DNA from: an uncultured Chloroflexia bacterium
GTDB taxonomy: Bacteria; Chloroflexota; Ktedonobacteria; Ktedonobacterales; JADMIN01
Direction of reading: 5' to 3'
Assembly: GCA_963702665.1 (NCBI GenBank)
Contig: CAVPDP010000019.1
Location: 331,023 to 395,022 of the forward strand
Length of the DNA: 64,000 nucleotides
Shown in pieces: positions 21,159 through 30,386 of the stretch. Made by a program: the position numbers and the translations under genes. How positions within the stretch are numbered: the stretch's first letter is position 1; every line of letters begins with the position of its first letter. Under the pieces are notes generated by a model. That model was given only the letters and a program-made list of their open reading frames with translations, had not been told where the DNA came from and ran no database searches.

Positions 21159-22113
21159 ATGCTGATACGTCCACTCGACCCTGCGCGCGACTTTCCGGCG
21201 CTGGCCGCGTTGTTCGCCACGCGCGATCCTGAGCCGCCGACGCCTGAACTGCTTCAAGAATGGGAGGGCAACGCGCCAGCGGGACTGGTACGCCAGCGGC
21301 TCGTCGCCATCGATGACGCGGGTGAGAATTCACTGGTCTGGCTACAGCGATGCCGTGCACTGGCCCTGGGATGCGCCAATCTCATTCGCGCTAGCGACGC
21401 TGGTAGCTCCCGATTATCGGCGGCAGGGGCTTGGCGCGCAACTGACCGATGCGGCGTTGACGTTTGCGCGGGAACAGGGAGCGACACGGCTGGTGGCGGA
21501 GGTGCGCGACAACATTCCCGAAGGGCTGCGCTTTGCCGAGCGCTACGGCTTCCAACTGAATCGCCATATCTTCGAGTCACGGCTGCAACTGGCTACATTT
21601 GATGAGCAGCCATTCGCGGGCGCGGTTGGTCACGTGGAGGCTGCGGGCATTCGGTTCTTCACGCTGGCCGATGTTGGCGATACCGACGAGGCGCGACGAA
21701 GGCTCTACGATGTCAATGCTGCGCTGGTACGTGACGAGCCGGGACACGACAGCGACTTTATGCCGTTCGCGCAGTTCCAGAAGACGGTCTGTAGCGCGTC
21801 GTGGTATCGCCCGGATGGCCAGATCGTCGCGGCGGTGGGCGATGACTGGATTGGCATGGCGGCGGTCGGCTACTTCGCGGCAACCAACTCGATGTATAAC
21901 ATGTTTACAGGGGTAGAATCCGCGTGGCGGGGCAAGGGAATCGCGCTGGCGCTCAAACTGCTGGCCATCGACTGTGCCCGCCGCTATGGCGCCGACTACA
22001 TCAGCACTAACAACGATTCTGAGAATGCGCCGATGCTGGCCATCAATCGCAGGCTTGGCTATCAGCCAGAGCCAGGATTCTATCGCATGATGCGCGAACT
22101 GGCATTCTCATAG
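21159..22113 (+). pseudogene. tandem-GNAT N-acetyltransferase, split by a frameshift near 21320-21345
   Basis: ORF 21159.. gives the N-terminus up to VAIDDAG. ORF 21313..22113 continues with GYSDAV...APDYRRQGLGAQL and a second GNAT module (VESAWRGKGIALALKL). Confidence 0.75.
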
Positions 22114-22452
22114 CTACAACGGCAGGTAGGTGAACAGGTCGGTTTCTCTAAACCGGGCCACACGCTGGCGCATCTCTCCATAGAACTCTGGTTTGCTCGC
22201 CTCGTTCACTGCCTTCTTTTGACGGAAAAGCGCATCTTGCGCGCGAAAGAAAGCGTCCATCTGCTCGCGGTGTTCCATATAGTAGAGGATCGTCCCGTAG
22301 ACATCCTGGAGCGAAAGCAGGGAAAAGCTAGCCTGTATCTCTTCTGGCGAATATCCCTGCTCCCAGAGCGCGATGACGCTATAGACGGAGACGCCGCTGT
22401 CGCCGACGTACCAGCCGCCATCTCGCTGGCGCACATACTCGACTGCCTGCAT
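22114..22452 (-). CDS. DUF433 domain protein (antitoxin-like HTH) with a C-terminal extension
   Basis: ATG 22452. The segment GGWYVGDSGVSVYSVIALWEQGYSPEEIQASFSLLSLQDVYGTILYY matches the DUF433 pattern. No PIN or DUF5615 partner gene is adjacent. Confidence 0.7.
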   Translation of the reverse strand: MQAVEYVRQRDGGWYVGDSGVSVYSVIALWEQGYSPEEIQASFSLLSLQDVYGTILYYMEHREQMDAFFRAQDALFRQKKAVNEASKPEFYGEMRQRVARFRETDLFTYLPL

Positions 22453-22574
22453 TGGTGTTCCTCGATGCCTGTCCAGCGCTGAAAAAACGCCACAATTACC
22501 GTTCGTCGTCATTGTATCATGTGTTGAACGAATTACGCGGCCAGCGCTTAAATGCCATTGGAGGGATACACACC

Positions 22575-23234
22575 ATGTCACTCGACCCGGAGCATCTCGC
22601 GAGTACACGTGCGACCTATGATCGCATTGCGGACGAATATGCGGCGCGTATCGCGGGCGAACTGGCGGGCAAGCCGCTAGACCGTGCGCTGTTGGCGTGC
22701 TTTGCCGAGCAAGTGGATGGCATGGGCACAGCGGTGGATATGGGCTGTGGCCCCGGCCACGTCGCCGCGTATCTCCACGAGTTGGGCGTGCCAATGATCG
22801 GAATCGATCTCTCGCCGGAGATGGTGGCAGTTGCCCGGCAGCGTTCGCCGAACATCGCCTTCGAGCAGGGTTCGATGCTGGCGCTCGCTACGCCTGATGC
22901 GGCGTGGGGCGGCATCGTGGCGTTCTATTCGATCATCCACCTGCCACCTGAGGCGCGACCACAGGCGCTGGCGGAGTTCTATCGAGCGCTGCAGCCAGGT
23001 GGCCTGCTATTTCTGGCGTTCCACATCGGCGACGAGCAGCGCCACCTGGACGAGTGGTGGGATCAGCCTGTCTCGCTAGATGTCTGGTTTCTGCAGCCAG
23101 CGGAGATCGAGACCCTGCTCCGCAACGCTGGATTCACCGTTGAGATGTCGCTGGTGCGACAGCCCTACGCGCCTGATGTAGAGCATCAGAGCCAGCGAGC
23201 GTATATTTTCGCGCGTAAGCCAATGACTATCTAG
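22575..23234 (+). CDS. class I SAM-dependent methyltransferase
   Basis: ATG 22575 follows GGAGGG. Motif I is AVDMGCGPGHVAAYL, then IGIDLSPEMV. Confidence 0.8.
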   Translation: MSLDPEHLASTRATYDRIADEYAARIAGELAGKPLDRALLACFAEQVDGMGTAVDMGCGPGHVAAYLHELGVPMIGIDLSPEMVAVARQRSPNIAFEQGSMLALATPDAAWGGIVAFYSIIHLPPEARPQALAEFYRALQPGGLLFLAFHIGDEQRHLDEWWDQPVSLDVWFLQPAEIETLLRNAGFTVEMSLVRQPYAPDVEHQSQRAYIFARKPMTI

Positions 23235-24031
23235 CTCCCGCTTGGTGTCACTACCGCGCTCGTTACCAGTGTCAGCCCGGCAGGCAACGAACCCGATTTG
23301 AGGTAGGCGGCCAGTTGCTTCGCACCGACCTCATCCATGCCGCTGATCTGCGCCGCGCCATCAATTTCGCTCTGGATAACCGCTGACTCGATGACGACAT
23401 CATTGGCCGTTATCGTCAGAGACAGGCCGACATGCGACGCCGTGTAGCTGGCGAACTGCTGTCTGGCCGATCCCGCGAACTCGAACTGCACGAGCCATAT
23501 TCCACCGTGCGTGATATCCTGCTGGACGTTTACCTGATTGGGATCCATCTGATCGCCAGTGAATATGATGCGATAGTGGTTCGCGTCGCAGGCGTTGACG
23601 CAGGTCTGCCCCTTTGTGCTCGTGCCGACGGGGAGGAATGTGTCACCTGTGTCGAGTATCGTGACTGCGCCAACGCTCGTCAGCAGCGCTATGATATCCG
23701 CGATTTGTGTGTTGCTGGTCATGCCCGGCAGCTCAACGATGAGAGTCGCTGCACCATCCGAGCGCACAACGACATCTGGAACAGCGGTGTACGCGTTAAT
23801 CCGCCGCGAGAGTACGACAGCAGCCGCGTCGCGCTGCTTCGTCAGGTCGCAGTTAGGGGCTGTCGGTAGGCATGCCACGTGCAGGGTGAGGCGAGCGCCG
23901 CCGTCACGTGCGAGTGAGTGCTGAGGCGCGGGAGACTTCCAAATGCTGATAGGCCCGCAGGCCGTGAGCGCCAGCGTACCTATCAGCAGACAGAAAAGGA
24001 TGAGGTAACGTCCATTCCATCGCATCGGCAT
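23231..24031 (-). CDS. lipoprotein with SecD/SecF P1-head-like domain
   Basis: ATG 24031 follows AAGGAG. The lipobox is LALTAC. The pattern RINAYTAVPDVVVRSDGAATLIVELPG...LTITANDVVIESAVIQSEIDGAAQISG...AAYLKSGSLPAGL resembles the SecD periplasmic domain. Confidence 0.5.
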   Translation of the reverse strand: MPMRWNGRYLILFCLLIGTLALTACGPISIWKSPAPQHSLARDGGARLTLHVACLPTAPNCDLTKQRDAAAVVLSRRINAYTAVPDVVVRSDGAATLIVELPGMTSNTQIADIIALLTSVGAVTILDTGDTFLPVGTSTKGQTCVNACDANHYRIIFTGDQMDPNQVNVQQDITHGGIWLVQFEFAGSARQQFASYTASHVGLSLTITANDVVIESAVIQSEIDGAAQISGMDEVGAKQLAAYLKSGSLPAGLTLVTSAVVTPSGS

Positions 24032-24288
24032 CTCTGATGGCTCCTTAATCACCCGAATCACCCGCGCGAATATGTTAGCGGCTTGAGCCACTACCCCGAC
24101 AGGCCACTCTCTGCCAAGCATACAATGTGTCGGCATGTCAGGGCAATGCGTAGGCGCCCAAAACCAGACGTTCACACTCTATGGACGGATCAAGTGCGAG
24201 CGACTGTGCTATCAGGTTGGATTCCCGCTGGATGTGAGGATGCGGGTCTACAGTTTCGGATGGGGTGGTTCATCATGCGTCGGCATCA

Positions 24289-24507
24289 CTACGTTCCTGG
24301 GCAATACGTTTTACTTTCGGCTAATTCTTCGTCGTCAGCCCCCAAGGCGCGCAAGAGTTCTTCATCGGTGAAGTAGATGGTTCCCTGAGTCTCAGTGAGC
24401 GCGTTGACCATCCGCTCAATAAGCTGCTCGGGTGTCTCCTGGTCACGTGCTGCTACCTGACGCAGGGTCTCATATTGCTCATCAGTGAGTTCAAAGACGT
24501 GGCTCAT
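24289..24507 (-). CDS. small acidic helical protein, paralog B of a tandem pair (3' end apparently frameshifted)
   Basis: GAGAGG lies 7 nt upstream of ATG 24507. The peptide begins MSHVFELTDEQYETLRQVAA... Compared with paralog A, an extra base at 24311-24319 shifts the tail. The corrected frame reads ...KRIAQERSDADA with its stop at 24273. Confidence 0.6.
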   Translation of the reverse strand: MSHVFELTDEQYETLRQVAARDQETPEQLIERMVNALTETQGTIYFTDEELLRALGADDEELAESKTYCPGT

Positions 24508-24518
24508 CAGCCGACCTC

Positions 24519-24737
24519 TCAATCGAAGGCAATACGTTTTGCTTCGGTGATTTGCTCGTCTGTCGCCCCAAGATGGTGGAACCAGTCATCGGTGGTGAAT
24601 GCATGGGAGGATGCCTGGCGGTTGTGCAATTCTTGTATCAACGCTTCGATAAGCGCATCAAGCGTCTCTCCCCGCTCATCGGCAGCTTGCCGCAATGTTT
24701 CATATTGCTCGTCGGTAAGTTCAATGATATGGCTCAT
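24519..24737 (-). CDS. small acidic helical protein, paralog A of a tandem pair
   Basis: GAGAGG lies 7 nt upstream of ATG 24737. The 72-aa peptide reads MSHIIELTDEQYETLRQAADERGETLDALIEALI...FTTDDWFHHLGATDEQITEAKRIAFD. Its stop overlaps the SD of paralog B. Confidence 0.65.
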   Translation of the reverse strand: MSHIIELTDEQYETLRQAADERGETLDALIEALIQELHNRQASSHAFTTDDWFHHLGATDEQITEAKRIAFD

Positions 24738-24843
24738 ACGCCTGCCTCTCATGTGGGAATGCATCATCATGATGACGTGTTCCATTCCACTGTATCACGC
24801 AATGAAACAGCGCCAGAGACCAGCCGTTTGCGACAGGCAGACG

Positions 24844-26315
24844 CTACAGCTTCGGGATGAGGGGACCCAACTGGTCCGCAGCGGGTTCCGCTCAGCAGAA
24901 CCACGGCTCGCTCAGATGGGGTACGGGGCGTCGCGCCCGCCGCAATGCGCCTGTATCGTCACGTGTATCGTCACCGACGCCCGCGCCCACCAACACTGGA
25001 ATCGATGTCCCCAGCCGCTCCGAGGCCAGACGTGGATGGCGGCAAACGTCACCGGAATCGGCTCGCGCGCGCTGGCGGCGCGTTCGACAATCGCCTGTAC
25101 CTCGCGCTGCAATGCATCCATGCGCGGGTCGGGGTGTTGCCAGGTGTAGCTGAGCGCCTCTTCATCCAGCGGGCCAAGCCACGCCCGCCCGTCGGGGTCA
25201 TCCAGCAGCGCGGAACCGGGCGGTACCAGCAGTCGGATGGCATACTGGATCGGGTCGACGTGTTCGATCAAATCGTGTTCGGCGATGAAGTCGAGCACAT
25301 CGAGGTAGTCGCGCGCGGTCGTCCACGGCGTGAAGGCGACGAACGTGGGCCGCATCGGGATACCCGCGTCGTCCAGGATGCCCAACGCCTCCGCCACATC
25401 GGCGCGACTGTGCCCCTTCTTCAGGTGGCGCAGCACGCCCTCGCTCAGCGATTCGACGGCGGAGACGACGAAGATGCAGCCGAGCGCGGCCAGCTCAGGG
25501 AAGACCTCGCGGCGCTCCAAAATATGCTCCACCTTGATCGTCGCGTCGAAGGTGACATCGGGAAACTCGGCGTGGAGCGCGCGGGCGATTTCCAGCGAGT
25601 GGCGCGGCCCATTGAGAAAATCGGGGTCGCCAAAGGTGATGTGCTCGACGCCAGCGCGCACCTGGGCGCGGATATCTTCGAGGACGAGCGGGCGTGGCAC
25701 GACGAAGAAGCGTCCGCCATAGACGGGCGTAATGGGGCAGTGGGCGCAGGTATGCAGACAGCCACGGCTCGCCTCGACGTATCCCGCCGGAACCACCTCG
25801 TCGCCGCGCACCAGATAGGCGTACGACTGCGGCGCAGGGAGCGCGCTGCGTTCGGGTACGGCGTGATCTAGCCGCCGCAGCACAGGGGTCGCCTGATGCT
25901 CGCGCGTGCGCACGCCAGGAATCGCGCCCGCGTCTGACGTTTCGAGCGACTCGGCCAGCGCCAGCAGCGCCTCCTCATACTCGCCGCCGATCACCGAGTC
26001 GGCGATGGTTCGCAGCAGATACTCGGCGTTGAGGGTGGCGTAGAGGCCGTAGACGCAGATGTGGGCGGTGGGGTTGAGCCTTCGCACACGCGCGGCCACA
26101 TGCATGCCCAGGCGCAGCGCGGTATGCATCGGCGCGGAGACGGCCACCAGTTTCGCCCGCATGATGGCCTGGTCGGAAAGCTCGGAGACGGATGTATCCA
26201 CCGCCGCCGGGGAAAATCCAGCGCGGCGCAGAACCGCCAGTGGCGAGGCAAGACTCAGCGGCTGGTGGCCCAGTTCGTAGCATGCTACCAGCAGGATCGC
26301 GCCGGGGTCTCTCAT
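24844..26315 (-). CDS. B12-binding-domain-type radical SAM protein with a C-terminal CUAEP selenocysteine tail
   Basis: N-terminal Rossmann-like domain (ILLVACYELGHQPLSLASP...), radical SAM CxxxCxxC (SRGCLHTCAHCP). The called stop at 24912 is bypassed in the adjacent frame, which reads ...PHLSEPWFC-UGA(24892-24894)-AEPAADQLGPLIPKL-TAG(24844-24846). This needs one frame change between ~24920 and ~25050. Confidence 0.8.
24863..24877 (-). promoter_or_regulatory. SECIS-like hairpin 14 nt downstream of the radical SAM UGA
   Basis: GGACC-AGUUG-GGUCC. The apical loop starts 20 nt after the UGA and has G at its second position. Confidence 0.45.
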
Positions 26316-26632
26316 TTCTTCGCAGGCGCCGCAGGTGCGCCGCCCTTGCCTTTGGCGCCGCTCGCTCCCTCAGGAACCCAGCCCTCCGGCATCTGTTCAT
26401 CCTCACCAAAGAAGAACTTTTCCATCTCCTGCCGGAGGATCTGGCGCGCATCGGGGTCGGCCAGATTGAGACCGTAGTGGTTGATGAGCAGGCGTGAATG
26501 TTCCTGCCACATGTCCCAGGCCTCCTGAGAGATATTCTCATAGATGCGCTGGCCCAGTTCACCGGGAACCGGCGGTTTCTCCAGACCCGGCAACTCCTGG
26601 CCCAGTTTGACACAATGCACCATTCGCGCCAT
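26312..26632 (-). CDS. yggX: Fe(2+)-trafficking / oxidative-damage protection protein YggX
   Basis: MARMVHCVKLGQELPGLEKPPVPGELGQRIYENISQEAWDMWQEHSRLLINHYGLNL aligns closely with E. coli YggX as I remember it. Its TGA overlaps the radical SAM ATG (ATGA at 26312-26315). Confidence 0.88.
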   Translation of the reverse strand: MARMVHCVKLGQELPGLEKPPVPGELGQRIYENISQEAWDMWQEHSRLLINHYGLNLADPDARQILRQEMEKFFFGEDEQMPEGWVPEGASGAKGKGGAPAAPAKK

Positions 26633-26805
26633 ATGGCTTGCTCCTATATCTGGCCTGCGTCGGCCATTGCCGGTTCCGCATACCTCTTCCGCATACCTCG
26701 TACTGAGAGCATACTACATCCGCGTCGCATGAGGCGAGGGAATCGCGTGATATGCTGAACACGGCTGAACACATCGGCAATGGTATAGCAGCATGAAGAG
26801 GCAAG

Positions 26806-28104
26806 ATGACGAGCAAAGGTACGGCGATTCTTGGCGGCGGCGCGCTGGGGCTGACGCTGGCGTGGCGGCTGGCGCGCGCAGGTGAACGCGTGGTGGTCTA
26901 TGAGCGTGAGCCATTGGCGGGCGGTCTGGCGGCGGGCTTTCGCGTGGGCGAGGAGTGAAGGTGCCCGTGGTTGGAGAAGTTTTACCACCACCTTTTCCGT
27001 AGCGACCACGACGCTATCGCGCTGATTGGCGAACTTGGGCTGGCGGATAAGCTCTACTGGGGCCATCCCAACACCAGTTCGCTGATCGATGGCAAGCCGT
27101 GGCGATTGGATGGGGCGCTGCCCGTGCTGAAGTTCGCGCCGCTGCCGGTTGTTGACCGGCTGCGGCTGGGGGCGGTCGCCGCGCTGATGAAGGCGCTGCC
27201 CAACGCGAACCCGCTGGAGGGCGTCACCGCCTCGGCATGGCTGCGGCGCTGGCTTGGCCCACGTGGCTATTCACTGGCCTTTGAGCCGCTCTTTCGCGGC
27301 AAGTTCGGCGCATACGCCGACGAGATCGCGATGCCGTGGTTCTGGGCGCGGATACATTGTCGCACGTCCGCGCTCGGCTATCTGCGCGGTGGTTTTCAGC
27401 AGTTGTACGAGGCGCTGGCCGCTGGCATCCAGGCGCATGGCGGTGAGGTGCGACTCGGCGTGACGGTGGATTCCGCCCGGCCCGCCGATGATGGCGCCTG
27501 GCAGGTGACGACTGCGGCGGGCGAGGAGCGATTCGCCCGTGTCGTCTCGACGCTGCCAACGCGCGTGACATTTCGGGTCGTGCCCGATCTGCCCGCCGAC
27601 TTCCGCACGCGCTACGACTGGGGGCTGGCCTACGGCGCCCACTGCCTGATTCTGGCGCTGGATCGCCAATTCATGAAGGATGTCTACTGGCTGAGCATCG
27701 CCGACGAGGGCTATCCATTTCTGGCGGCGGTGGAGCATACCAACTACATCCCGGCGGAGGAGTATGGTGGTCGCCATCTGCTCTATCTCGGCAACTATCT
27801 GCCCATGGATCATCCGTTGATGCGCGCTACCCCACAAGAGGCGCTGGAGCAGTTCGTGCCGCATCTCCAGCGGCTCAATCCCGCCTTCTCACGCGACTGG
27901 ATCACCGATATGTGGGGATTCGCCGCGCCGTTCGCCCAGCCCATCGTCACCCGCGACTATCGCGCGCACATCCCGCCGCACGAGACGCCGCTGCCCGGCC
28001 TCTACCTCGCCAACATGTTCCAGGTCTACCCGCAGGATCGTGGCCAGAACTATAGCATCAAGCTGGCGAATGGGCTGGCGCAACGGCTGGCGCTGGCAAG
28101 GTGA
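26806..28104 (+). CDS. NAD(P)/FAD-dependent oxidoreductase (amine-oxidase / phytoene-desaturase-like fold) interrupted by one in-frame UGA
   Basis: ATG 26806 is followed by a dinucleotide-binding fold (TAILGGGALGLTLAWRLARAGERVVVYEREPLAGGLAAGF), then GAG GAG TGA(26956-26958) AGG TGC. The rest continues in the same frame (LEKFYHHLFRSD... to 28104, track ORF 26971..28104). Confidence 0.8.
26959..26993 (+). promoter_or_regulatory. bulged hairpin immediately 3' of the in-frame UGA (SECIS candidate)
   Basis: AGGUG-ccc-GUGGU-[12-nt loop UGGAGAAGUUUU]-ACCAC-CACCU. That is 10 bp in total, and the loop has G at position 2. Confidence 0.4.
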
Positions 28105-28110
28105 TTCTAG

Positions 28111-29052
28111 TCTGACGAATCGAGCCGGATGTGCTACCCTCGTGCTGGAGATGGCATTGGAACGAGGGTAGCCACGATGGTTGGACGCGGGGAGTTGACA
28201 GAGGAAGCGTGGAGCGTCATCGCGCCGCTGCTGCCCGCGCAGGGGGCGGCGTGGCGGGCAGTGGCGGGACCATCGCACGGTGATCAACGGCATCTTATGG
28301 AAGCTGCGCACAGGCGCGCCCTGGCGCGACCTGCCGGAGCGCTAAGGCCCGTGGCAGACGTGCGCGGACCGGCTCTACCGCTGGCGCCGCGACGGGACGT
28401 GGGACCGGATCTGGCGCACGTACAGACCAAATCGGATGCGGTGGGCGAGGTCGTCTGGGAGGTGAGCATCGATAGCTCGACGGCCCGCGCCCACCAGCAT
28501 GCCAGTGGCGCCCGCCGTCGGCCGCAGTCAGGCCGACGCAAAAAGGGGGTCCAGCACCCAACCGACGAGGGGCTCGGACGCAGCCGGGGAGGACTGACGA
28601 CCAAGTTCCATCTGGCCTGCGACGGGAAGGGACGACGCTCTCGGTGGTGATCACGGCGGGACAACGCCATGACAGCACGCAACTGGGGCCGATCTTGGAT
28701 GGGATCCGCGTCCCGCGCCCGGGTGGACGGGGACGACCGCGCACGCGGCGCGGATCGCGTCATCGCCGATAAAGGCTACAGCTATGCGCGCTGTCGTCAG
28801 CTGCTGCGCCAGCGCGGCAGATCCCGCACACCATCCCAGAGCGCAGCGACCAGCGAGCACGACGAGCGGCCCAACCTGGTCGCCCGCTGACATTAGACAA
28901 GGCGATCTACGCGCGACGCAATGTGATGGAGCGCTGCATCAATCGGCTCAAACAGTGGCGTGGGCTGGCCACCCGCTACGAGAAGCGCGCCGTCAACTAC
29001 CGGGCGATGCTGGTCTCGCCTCCATCGTCACGATTGAGTCGTGATTCATCGG
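28111..29052 (+). mobile_element. degenerate IS5-family (IS427/IS1031-like) insertion sequence with an inactivated transposase
   Basis: Transposase motifs are scattered over three frames: [41 protein letters not shown] (nonsense at the conserved Tyr), DSSTARAHQHASGAR, LGRSRGGLTTK, VIADKGYS, NVMERCINRLKQWRGLATRYEKRAVNY. The ends are imperfect inverted repeats (CTGACGAATCGAG vs CCGATGAATCACG). TAG flanks both sides (28108-28110 and 29053-29055). Confidence 0.8.
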
Positions 29053-29202
29053 TAGACCCTGCTGGCGTCTCATGTGGCCGACATCAACGATTTTATGGCT
29101 TGAAGTAGATAGTGAATTTGGGGTTAGCTGCCGCTATTGTTTCGTCGAAAATGCAGTGTAGAAGCATTTCGCTAATTGGGTAAGGCGTTTCCAGCAGTAC
29201 CT

Positions 29203-30386
29203 CTACTCAGCCTTGGCATCCTGCGATAAGACAACATTGGTCTCCTGCTGCCACTTACCATCATGGTAGCGCAGGAGCGCACCACAGAGTCCCACCGCCC
29301 AGGTGTCACTGCTGGCGGGAAGCGTGGTGACACCATAGAGCGGGTATGAGATTGGGCTGGTGACCTTCGACCACACCCCAGAGATATCATGGTAGAGGCT
29401 ATTAGATCCGCCGACGGCCCAGCCTTCTTCTGGGGTGGAGCGCGTTGCGGGGCGCAGCGAGACACTGGAGAGGTTCTCATCCACGGTGCGCACGAGGAAC
29501 CAGCGACTACCCACATAGCGCAGAATCACGCCAGAAGAGGAGTTCCCAATGCTACCGACAGCGTAGCCCGCCTCGGACGAATTCATGGCGATGCCAGTGA
29601 GAAGGATGGGGCCCAGCGCTTGTTGGGCGATGGGGAGCATAATGTCTTGCTCGCTCCATGACGTGCCGTCGTAGTGGACAATGTTCGCCACCAAAGCGGG
29701 CGATCCAGACATCATCTGGACCAGTCGCCGCGATGGCTGCGCCCACCGCCCCATTGCTTATCAGCGAGAGCCGTCACTTCGCGCCAGGCCGTCCCATCGT
29801 AGTGCAGCGTGATCCCGTCACCGGTCGCCCACCCATCCGTAGGAGAAAGCATGAGCAGCGCCGAGGGATCGGATCCGATGCCAATGGGAAAGACGGGTGT
29901 TGAGATCTTCCAAGTGGCGCCGTCATAGTGCAGCAGGACACCGCCGGGTCGGAAGCTGTGGTAGCGGTCACCGATGGGAATGGGCATGGAGGCCCAGGCC
30001 CAGCCATCGTGCGCCGACACCATCGAGACGGCGGTAAATGCGGACGTATCGTCGAGACCGGCGGGTTTGGGGAGAATCGTCCACTGGCCGCGTGAGTAGC
30101 GCATGAGCAGCGTCGTGGGTTTGCCGCTGATGCGCCCAACCGCCCAGCCGTCGTCCGCCGACACCATTGAGACACTCTGCAAGCTCATTGTATTGGCCCA
30201 AGGGTAGGGCTGCATGACTCCTAGGCGGAAGAGCCACGCGACGAAGGTCGGCTGCAGCACGTATGCCAGGATCAGTGCGACAGTAACCAGGGCCGCAGTG
30301 ATCCCCAGGGCCGCGCGTCGCTGTAGAGCAGACCAGCCAGCTGGGAACAGGAAACCTTGGAAGCGCATGTGCCAAGAGTCCTTCAC
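29203..30386 (-). pseudogene. membrane-anchored beta-propeller repeat protein (Ycf48/BNR-like blades), split by two frameshifts at ~29700-29760
   Basis: N-terminal TM helix, then repeated blades with x-[HR]-Y-D/x-G-x-x-W (LLMRYSRGQW, LLHYDGATW, ITLHYDGTAW, IVHYDGTSW, ILRYVGSRW, LLRYHDGKW). Between ORFs 29712..30386 and 29203..29754, a third frame carries AVGAAIAATGPDDVWIA. Confidence 0.65.

Follow-up and report, generated by a model that had tools for sequence, protein, structure and literature searches.

An overlapping yggX–radical SAM selenoprotein gene pair that persists in Chloroflexota while its neighbours change

Organization of the locus

We analysed a 64-kb stretch of DNA from an uncultured Chloroflexia bacterium (contig CAVPDP010000019.1; the whole stretch is called the window hereafter), in which yggX, the gene of a Fe(2+)-trafficking or oxidative-damage protection protein, overlaps the start of a gene encoding a radical S-adenosylmethionine (SAM) enzyme with a selenocysteine (Sec) near its C terminus. 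This enzyme belongs to NF040546, a family named after its CUAEP or CCAEP tail. Its closest homologues carry the name Ktedonobacterales, and the window is of the Ktedonobacterales type of Chloroflexota. Two small genes (small1 and small2) whose products are probably ribbon-helix-helix (RHH) proteins, a lipoprotein gene, a divergent oxidoreductase gene and a broken transposase gene lie around the pair (Table 1), and all gene families in the locus are already known. The original prediction, made from the sequence alone, was that five of these genes may form one functional module. Its coordinates all proved correct, and direct reading confirmed that the yggX stop and the radical SAM start overlap as ATGA at positions 26312-26315.

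Table 1. Features of the region around yggX and the radical SAM gene (window positions; aa, amino acids; nt, nucleotides; SECIS, selenocysteine insertion sequence; FAD, flavin adenine dinucleotide; IS, insertion sequence; ORF, open reading frame)
Feature	Coordinates	Strand	Description
Stand-alone SecD-P1-head-like lipoprotein	24031..23231	minus	266 aa; signal peptide, LTAC lipobox; PF22599; outside the conserved module
small2	24507..24289	minus	72 aa; paralogue of small1; outside the conserved module
small1	24737..24519	minus	72 aa; probable ribbon-helix-helix; outside the conserved module
CUAEP/CCAEP-tail radical SAM selenoprotein gene	24844..26315	minus	N-terminal B12-binding-like domain; NF040546
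SECIS hairpin GGACC-AGUUG-GGUCC	24877..24863	minus	begins 15 nt past the UGA; covariation
ATGA stop/start overlap (yggX TGA and radical SAM ATG)	26315..26312	minus	read from sequence
yggX (Fe(2+)-trafficking / oxidative-damage protection protein)	26632..26312	minus	106 aa; PF04362, NF003817
Divergent intergenic region yggX/oxidoreductase	26633..26805	.	173 nt; tandem repeats
Amine-oxidase-type FAD oxidoreductase (PRK07233 family)	26806..28104	plus	NF005560, 430 bits; divergent from yggX
IS5-family transposase, broken into at least 3 frames	28129..29105	plus	NF033580 on three ORFs

The minus-strand genes, read from yggX through the radical SAM gene, small1 and small2 to the lipoprotein gene, are separated by spacers of -4, 106, 11 and 257 nt, and tight packing is limited to the yggX/radical SAM and small1/small2 junctions. 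YggX matches PF04362 with 134.6 bits (E = 1e-39, cut-off 27) over residues 1-87 of the 88-position model, and NF003817 with 140.9 bits (cut-off 74). Its N terminus, MARMVHC, places a cysteine at position 7 (Cys7), which is invariant in 44 of 44 enzyme-linked sequences, and an AGGAG Shine-Dalgarno sequence stands 9 nt ahead of its ATG. Enzyme-linked YggX proteins also carry a low-complexity C-terminal extension rich in Gly, Ala and Lys (residues 88-106 in the window, 26312-26370). It ends in (A/R)KK, AKK in the window, and the terminal Lys-Lys-stop codons double as the source of the enzyme start codon. The E. coli protein is not known to have such an extension.

Conservation of the yggX–enzyme pair

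Relatives of the enzyme were sought by scanning one genome per GTDB species, which gave at least 576 matches, and the best 80 loci were taken with 10-kb flanks. They span Ktedonobacteria, Thermomicrobiales, other Chloroflexota, Blastocatellia/Acidobacteriota, Methylomirabilota/Rokubacteria, Nitrospirota, Gemmatimonadota, one planctomycete and others. Their neighbours were censused by tblastn with the window proteins, together with de novo clustering of all ORFs and re-scoring with hidden Markov models. For the reverse test, 80 metagenome contigs were picked via YggX (61-94% identical).

In 43 of the 80 genome loci, yggX lies directly upstream of the enzyme gene and on the same strand, and it is upstream in every yggX-positive locus. 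When the window is added to these loci, 33 of 44 junctions show the 4-nt overlap, as ATGA or GTGA, the remainder having gaps of 23-261 nt. The reverse test gave a similar picture: the enzyme gene comes next in 67 of the 80 contigs, with an overlap in 59 of these 67, while six contigs end within 100 nt of yggX and seven have room for the enzyme gene and do not carry it. Altogether, 94 of 108 pooled junctions overlap. Moreover, the pairing persists where enzyme identity is down to about 50% and the flanking genes differ, and the pairwise identities of YggX and of the enzyme are correlated (r = 0.67, 780 pairs). The overlapping arrangement is maintained over Ktedonobacteria and several other Chloroflexota lineages; the coupling extends well past the genome of the window. 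According to these results, the pair is very probably a conserved coupled unit, and the translational coupling of an iron-handling protein to an Fe-S enzyme, as originally predicted, is supported both by co-occurrence and by the recurrence of the same overlapping junction. The prediction had also asked whether the small-protein family and the oxidoreductase co-occur with the enzyme; unlike yggX, they do so in its closest relatives only. We found no report of the yggX–enzyme pairing in the searchable literature on the CUAEP family or on YggX with Fe-S enzymes.

Outside the Chloroflexota, another gene is found beside the enzyme. At 16 loci, the gene of an Nfu-type Fe-S carrier (PF01106 NifU and PF08712 Nfu_N, with a CxxC motif) comes directly downstream of the enzyme gene (for example L074:8221-8811). 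None of these loci has yggX, and 13 of them also have the ligase gene described below. Nfu holds this adjoining slot in Acidobacteriota, Methylomirabilota and some other phyla. The pairing with yggX, taken together with the presence of Nfu in the adjoining slot elsewhere, supports the view of an Fe-S helper and its client.

We therefore consider it fairly probable that yggX and the radical SAM selenoprotein gene, in this order, make up the real unit at this locus, an operon of two genes, with YggX as an Fe-S helper. The regulatory scenario would be as follows. First, yggX would be translated from its own Shine-Dalgarno sequence. Ribosomes finishing YggX would then restart on the enzyme at the ATGA, so that both proteins would be made together. 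YggX would most likely keep the oxygen-labile [4Fe-4S] cluster of the enzyme loaded or repaired in these aerobic bacteria, and in other phyla an Nfu-type Fe-S carrier encoded in the adjoining position may take its place. The helper function itself, which we argue by analogy, seems to us a reasonably good bet. In work on Salmonella and E. coli, YggX is a small protein linked to the handling of Fe(II), to oxidative stress and to the protection of Fe-S enzymes against oxidants, and its Cys7 is functionally essential in Salmonella (PMC11078426). The protein binds Fe(II) weakly (PMC3989283). In the case of Nfu, there is the precedent of LipA, a radical SAM enzyme whose auxiliary cluster is restored by NfuA in the course of turnover (PMC9585516).

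The same data could also reflect inherited synteny, YggX being a general housekeeping stress protein and an ancestral neighbour that stayed put. Indeed, gammaproteobacterial YggX is a general protein of the SoxRS regulon (PMC11078426), the yggX-positive loci come mostly from one phylum, and both the 21 loci without a helper beside the enzyme and the seven YggX contigs with room but no enzyme would fit such a history. However, the overlap is retained in 94 of the 108 junctions while the surrounding genes turn over, and the enzyme is present in 67 of the 74 informative YggX contigs. Moreover, inertia hardly explains why a different Fe-S helper, Nfu, occupies the adjoining slot in other phyla. 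On balance we judge inherited synteny unlikely.

A genuine selenoprotein related to ArsL

In the assembly, a frameshift interrupts the radical SAM ORF, which ends at 24912 with a Trp-rich out-of-frame tail. Homologues align with residues 1-430 in one frame (to 25035) and with residues 432-473 in the -1 frame (from 25032). The window is one G short, for it reads ATCC-ACGT where two short-read contigs and a 96%-identical contig read ATCCGACGT. Relative to contigs L087, L088 and L170, this is a 1-nt deletion at about 25033/25034, which shifts the frame 44 codons ahead of the UGA. An uninterrupted reading frame of the enzyme gene was not found in the window. Programmed frameshifting was considered and rejected, because the frame of the relatives is continuous. 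Among the sister long-read contigs, the gene is intact in L170 (474 aa) and broken at other sites in L169 and L086, and the other large genes of the window (~21-38 kb) carry no frameshift. The deletion is either an assembly error or the sign of a pseudogene.

Once its frame is repaired, the enzyme consists of 474 aa, then U (TGA at 24894..24892) and AEPAADQLGPLIPKL, and a TAG stop at 24846..24844. On NF040546 (cut-off 500), its translation with U replaced by C reaches 716.8 bits, and the enzyme shares with this family the tail motif and the SECIS hairpin. Its CxxxCxxC motif, C186-LHT-C190-AH-C193, is 100% conserved in 73 homologues; C12, C87 (90%), C280 and C474 are further conserved cysteines. 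The Sec codon stands in the context TGC TGA GCG GAA CCC (24897..24883). The protein P0001, 96% identical to the enzyme, ends at the same ...EPWFC, and Cys-Cys homologues run on ...CCAEPTSEQLEPLTLKF. The five core pairs of the hairpin are 94-100% paired over 62 distinct Sec-type loci, with compensatory A-U/G-C and C-G/U-A changes, and its AGUUN loop is conserved; register-shifted controls pair at 36-57%, and the hairpin is mostly gone in the Cys-Cys variants. Such a covarying hairpin after the UGA identifies the radical SAM enzyme as the genuine selenoprotein of the locus. No tRNA-Sec gene, or any tRNA gene, was found in the 64-kb window, and an Rfam scan of 22000-29500 returned no match, hence no riboswitch in that interval. 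A PDB sequence search with the enzyme profile gave remote radical SAM matches only (28.7 bits at most), with no close solved structure.

The second-best model match of the enzyme is ArsL (NF040542), with 315.9 bits over positions 1-413 of 423. Both proteins have a CxxxCxxC core and a short thiol-rich C-terminal tail. However, this score is under the ArsL cut-off of 450, the tail is C-U-A-E-P instead of RCCLKC, and arsM, arsQ and other ars-operon genes are absent from the neighbourhood. On these profile scores, the enzyme is best regarded as the nearest paralogue of ArsL and not as an ArsL member. ArsL makes a 3-amino-3-carboxypropyl species from SAM, and its Cys-rich C-terminal tail holds As(III) (10.1101/2024.02.01.577332; 10.64898/2026.04.29.721666). 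By comparison with ArsL, the Cys-Sec tail of the present enzyme probably holds its substrate. Haft has suggested that the CU motif of NF040546, an uncharacterised family, points to an interaction with metal (10.1101/2022.07.06.499078).

This resemblance raises a different role for YggX, that of a substrate or metal chaperone. In such a scheme, the Cys-Sec tail would receive a soft metal(loid) or a chalcogen from Cys7 and present it for the formation of a carbon-heteroatom bond, as in ArsL. The invariance of Cys7 is in keeping with it, as are the binding of the substrate As(III) by the ArsL tail (10.1101/2024.02.01.577332), the argument that CU motifs signal heavy-metal interaction (10.1101/2022.07.06.499078) and the weak binding of Fe(II) by YggX (PMC3989283). 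However, the slot is filled elsewhere by Nfu, a bona fide Fe-S carrier with a CxxC motif, which points to the supply of a cluster rather than the delivery of a substrate. Moreover, the 80 loci have no conserved neighbours for metal(loid) resistance or transport. We therefore hold the chaperone scheme to be improbable, and retain YggX as a putative Fe-S helper.

Partners conserved across the family

The family-wide partners of the enzyme are an ATP-grasp gene of the L-amino-acid-ligase type and a formyltransferase-like gene. The former (PF13535 and LAL_C2 PF18603) lies beside the enzyme gene at 23 loci, such as L063:16823-18094, L030, L036 and L058, in varied gene orders in Chloroflexota, Acidobacteriota, Methylomirabilota, Nitrospirota and a planctomycete; it matches weakly the dapdiamide synthase DdaF and the alanine-anticapsin ligase BacD. 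The latter (PF00551, 4e-30, under the fmt cut-off) is divergent from yggX at 29 loci, all of them yggX-positive. It is conserved in Ktedonobacteria and falls within L007-L079 (for example L065:8632-9600, and L058). Locus L058, from Thermogemmatispora aurantia A1-2 (NZ_BKZV01000003.1), encodes the Cys-Cys form of the enzyme and has all four genes: formyltransferase-like, yggX, enzyme and ATP-grasp. In the clade of the window, the FAD oxidoreductase gene occupies the position of the formyltransferase-like gene, and remnants of IS5 adjoin it. None of the ATP-grasp ligase, the formyltransferase-like gene and Nfu is encoded within the 64-kb window. We did not find YggX, Nfu, the ligase or the formyltransferase-like protein described as partners of NF040546 in the searchable literature.

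One could imagine that the enzyme, YggX or Nfu and the ATP-grasp ligase, with the formyltransferase-like protein in Ktedonobacteria, form a mobile biosynthetic cassette, widespread among the Chloroflexota, Acidobacteriota and Methylomirabilota of soils, whose product would be a non-proteinogenic amino acid. As in ArsL, SAM would donate its 3-amino-3-carboxypropyl group to a substrate bound at the Cys-Sec tail, and the product would then be converted to a dipeptide or to an N-formyl derivative, yielding a new natural product of the antimetabolite type. We put this forward tentatively, as a proposal that is rather doubtful at present. The recurrence of the ligase gene beside the enzyme suggests an amino-acid-like product, and we speculate that the two fit together.

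Discussion

Two known systems help to place the pair. In gammaproteobacteria, the SoxRS-controlled mutY-yggX operon also sets a YggX with a critical N-terminal cysteine beside a [4Fe-4S] enzyme, and the two genes are co-transcribed and sometimes overlap (PMC11078426). There, however, yggX is downstream of the gene of a DNA glycosylase, whereas in Chloroflexota it precedes a radical SAM selenoprotein gene and overlaps its start; in addition, YggX of the window has the extra Gly/Ala/Lys-rich tail. The second system pairs lipoyl synthase, a radical SAM enzyme, with NfuA or NFU1, a dedicated Fe-S carrier that binds it and maintains its catalytic competence (PMC9585516), just as an nfu gene adjoins the CUAEP enzyme gene at 16 loci. 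In contrast, nfuA and lipA are unlinked, the sacrificial auxiliary cluster is a feature of LipA, and the window has YggX and not Nfu.

Several points weigh against YggX as the coupled Fe-S helper of the enzyme. There is as yet no settled molecular function for YggX itself. At 21 of the 80 loci, mostly from Thermomicrobiales, neither yggX nor nfu adjoins the enzyme gene, so that a linked helper is not obligatory; these 21 loci share no conserved neighbours, and they are also without the ligase and the formyltransferase-like gene. The split between yggX and nfu tracks phylogeny and thus represents few independent events. Furthermore, the 80 loci, which are the top-scoring ones among the matches, are skewed to Chloroflexota. 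As regards expression, co-transcription and coupling are inferred from the gene geometry. The Shine-Dalgarno sequence ahead of the enzyme start is weak in overlapping and non-overlapping loci alike and does not discriminate between the groups. In a promoter and terminator scan of 22900-27100, the counts equalled the shuffle expectation and were uninformative, the single feature being a weak terminator-like site at 24824-24812. Finally, with its enzyme gene frameshifted, the pair may be non-functional in the window.

For two decades the molecular role of YggX has been under debate, as it is not known to have a defined client. The conserved overlapping operon would supply such a client, and the presence of Nfu in the same slot elsewhere strengthens the case. 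If the cassette proposed above is real, the enzyme would be the first defined and genetically dedicated client of any Fe-trafficking protein. For NF040546, a large selenoprotein family that is still uncharacterised, these associations also offer the first hints from gene context. ArsL, its nearest characterised relative, forms a carbon-arsenic bond in the making of an antibiotic, and the recurring ligase neighbour suggests an amino-acid-like product.

Clade-specific neighbours

We then considered whether the remaining genes belong to the same system. That all five genes act together, possibly with the small genes encoding peptide substrates of the enzyme, has some appeal: they all lie within 5 kb, four in the same orientation, and in the closest relatives the small genes keep their synteny with the genes of the enzyme and the oxidoreductase. 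However, this synteny is lost outside the clade of the window, in which the enzyme is 83-96% identical. The small family is confined to Ktedonobacterales, in unrelated contexts, and is paired elsewhere with an overlapping 97-aa ORF. Syntenic contigs do not carry the lipoprotein gene, spacers of 106 and 257 nt set these neighbours apart from the operon, and the enzyme has no RiPP-recognition (ribosomally synthesized and post-translationally modified peptide) or SPASM domain among its Pfam and NCBIfam profile matches. A joint action of the five genes is thus highly improbable, and the functional module originally predicted from them is not supported, since in the 80-locus census the partners other than yggX accompany the enzyme gene in the closest relatives only. 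The small genes, the lipoprotein gene and the oxidoreductase gene are neighbours specific to this clade, in a region that has been rearranged, and not pathway members.

The two small genes had been described as paralogous, and their products are indeed identical at 32 of 67 positions (48%, E = 1e-19). Neither has a Pfam or NCBIfam match above threshold; the sub-threshold matches are to RHH_1 (E = 0.013) and RHH_7 (E = 0.043). In the AlphaFold2 model (predicted local distance difference test score of 68), an N-terminal coil is followed by two helices, and the top Foldseek matches are nearly all RHH proteins (PutA, Arc, FitA, VapB), with a probability of at most 0.98 and E values of at least 0.46, none significant. 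Taken together, the models and the weak matches point to a probable RHH fold. The family counts about 100 proteins, all organism-named members being from Ktedonobacterales and none having a Pfam domain. In the 80 loci it is present only at L002 and L004; members adjoining the enzyme gene are also found in contigs L086-L088. At each of these five places, a single small gene is followed by the overlapping 97-aa ORF (L002:11783-12076, L004:11791-12084, L086:4224-4517), in a layout like that of toxin-antitoxin systems. This ORF has no Pfam, NCBIfam, PHROG or PDB match, nor any match to a known toxin family. The window holds no homologue of it; the second small-gene copy is present instead. The small2 product is 84-88% identical to that of the single copy in L002 and L004, and its C terminus diverges from its relatives where the 97-aa ORF would start.

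Elsewhere, a 75%-identical copy lies amid unrelated genes in a 5.07-Mb Ktedonobacterales genome that encodes the enzyme (P0040), and a 40%-identical family member adjoins NADH dehydrogenase genes. Given how narrow the family is and how unrelated its contexts are, we also rejected the ideas that the small genes encode RiPP precursors or belong to the enzyme pathway. Like RHH antitoxins of type II systems, the small genes encode about 75 aa, of which the N-terminal 45 are predicted to form strand-helix-helix, and they have an overlapping downstream ORF in relatives. Unlike such antitoxins, their fold and sequence matches are all below significance, and the window has no adjacent cognate toxin gene. 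They are probably a lineage-specific antitoxin-like or regulator pair that is unconnected to the enzyme.

The lipoprotein had been predicted to carry a domain like the P1 head of SecD, which its LTAC lipobox and its match to PF22599 (SecDF_P1_head, 9.3e-18) bear out. It scores 85 bits on TIGR01129, under the cut-off of 244; the P1 region alone matches, and the membrane domain of SecD with its six transmembrane segments is absent from the protein. Judged by these matches, it is best described as a stand-alone P1-like domain and not as a SecD. A homologue is present at one of the 80 loci, L004, 7 kb from the enzyme gene, and none in the syntenic contigs L086 and L170. At L004, this homologue adjoins the same methyltransferase gene as in the window, not the enzyme gene.

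The divergent oxidoreductase gene does contain an in-frame TGA (26956..26958), as the original prediction had it, but the selenoprotein that this was thought to indicate is ruled out, the TGA being an indel lesion. The loop around it reads GDSQGGPW, GDAQSGPW, NANGPW, GEASEGGPW or GEASEGAPW in relatives, without Cys or Sec, and we rejected Sec on this basis. Homologues carry Gln, Ser or Glu at the position of the TGA, and the length of the loop varies between relatives. Compared with a 96%-identical contig, the window gene has two deletions, the first of 2 nt and the second of 1 nt, at a distance of 11 nt from each other (26950-26966), so that the TGA corresponds to AGT-GAA read out of frame. 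The gene is present at only four of the 80 loci (L001-L004), in which the enzyme is 83-86% identical, and in genome loci and contigs together it is limited to the clade of the window (enzyme 83-96% identical). The lesions in the enzyme gene and in the oxidoreductase gene could be either assembly errors or real mutations. For annotation, the in-frame TGA of the oxidoreductase gene is not to be called selenocysteine, and the radical SAM gene needs checking at the level of the reads.

The spacer between yggX and the oxidoreductase gene contains two direct repeats, TTCCGCATACCTC twice (26674-26699) and GCTGAACAC twice (26754-26772), and the second copy of GCTGAACAC is missing in the relatives L171 and L172. 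These tandem repeats could be operator sites or products of slippage. Further out, two adjacent ORFs of 183 and 224 aa with similar internal repeats (...VSMVSA.DGWA...) lie on the minus strand at 29203-30386; neither matches a Pfam or NCBIfam family. Finally, the three ORFs of the IS5 transposase match NF033580 at model positions 91-139, 166-202 and 221-249 (1.1e-13, 8e-4 and 7.8e-8, respectively). The transposase gene is either a degraded insertion sequence or the site of further indels, and it marks local rearrangement next to the locus.

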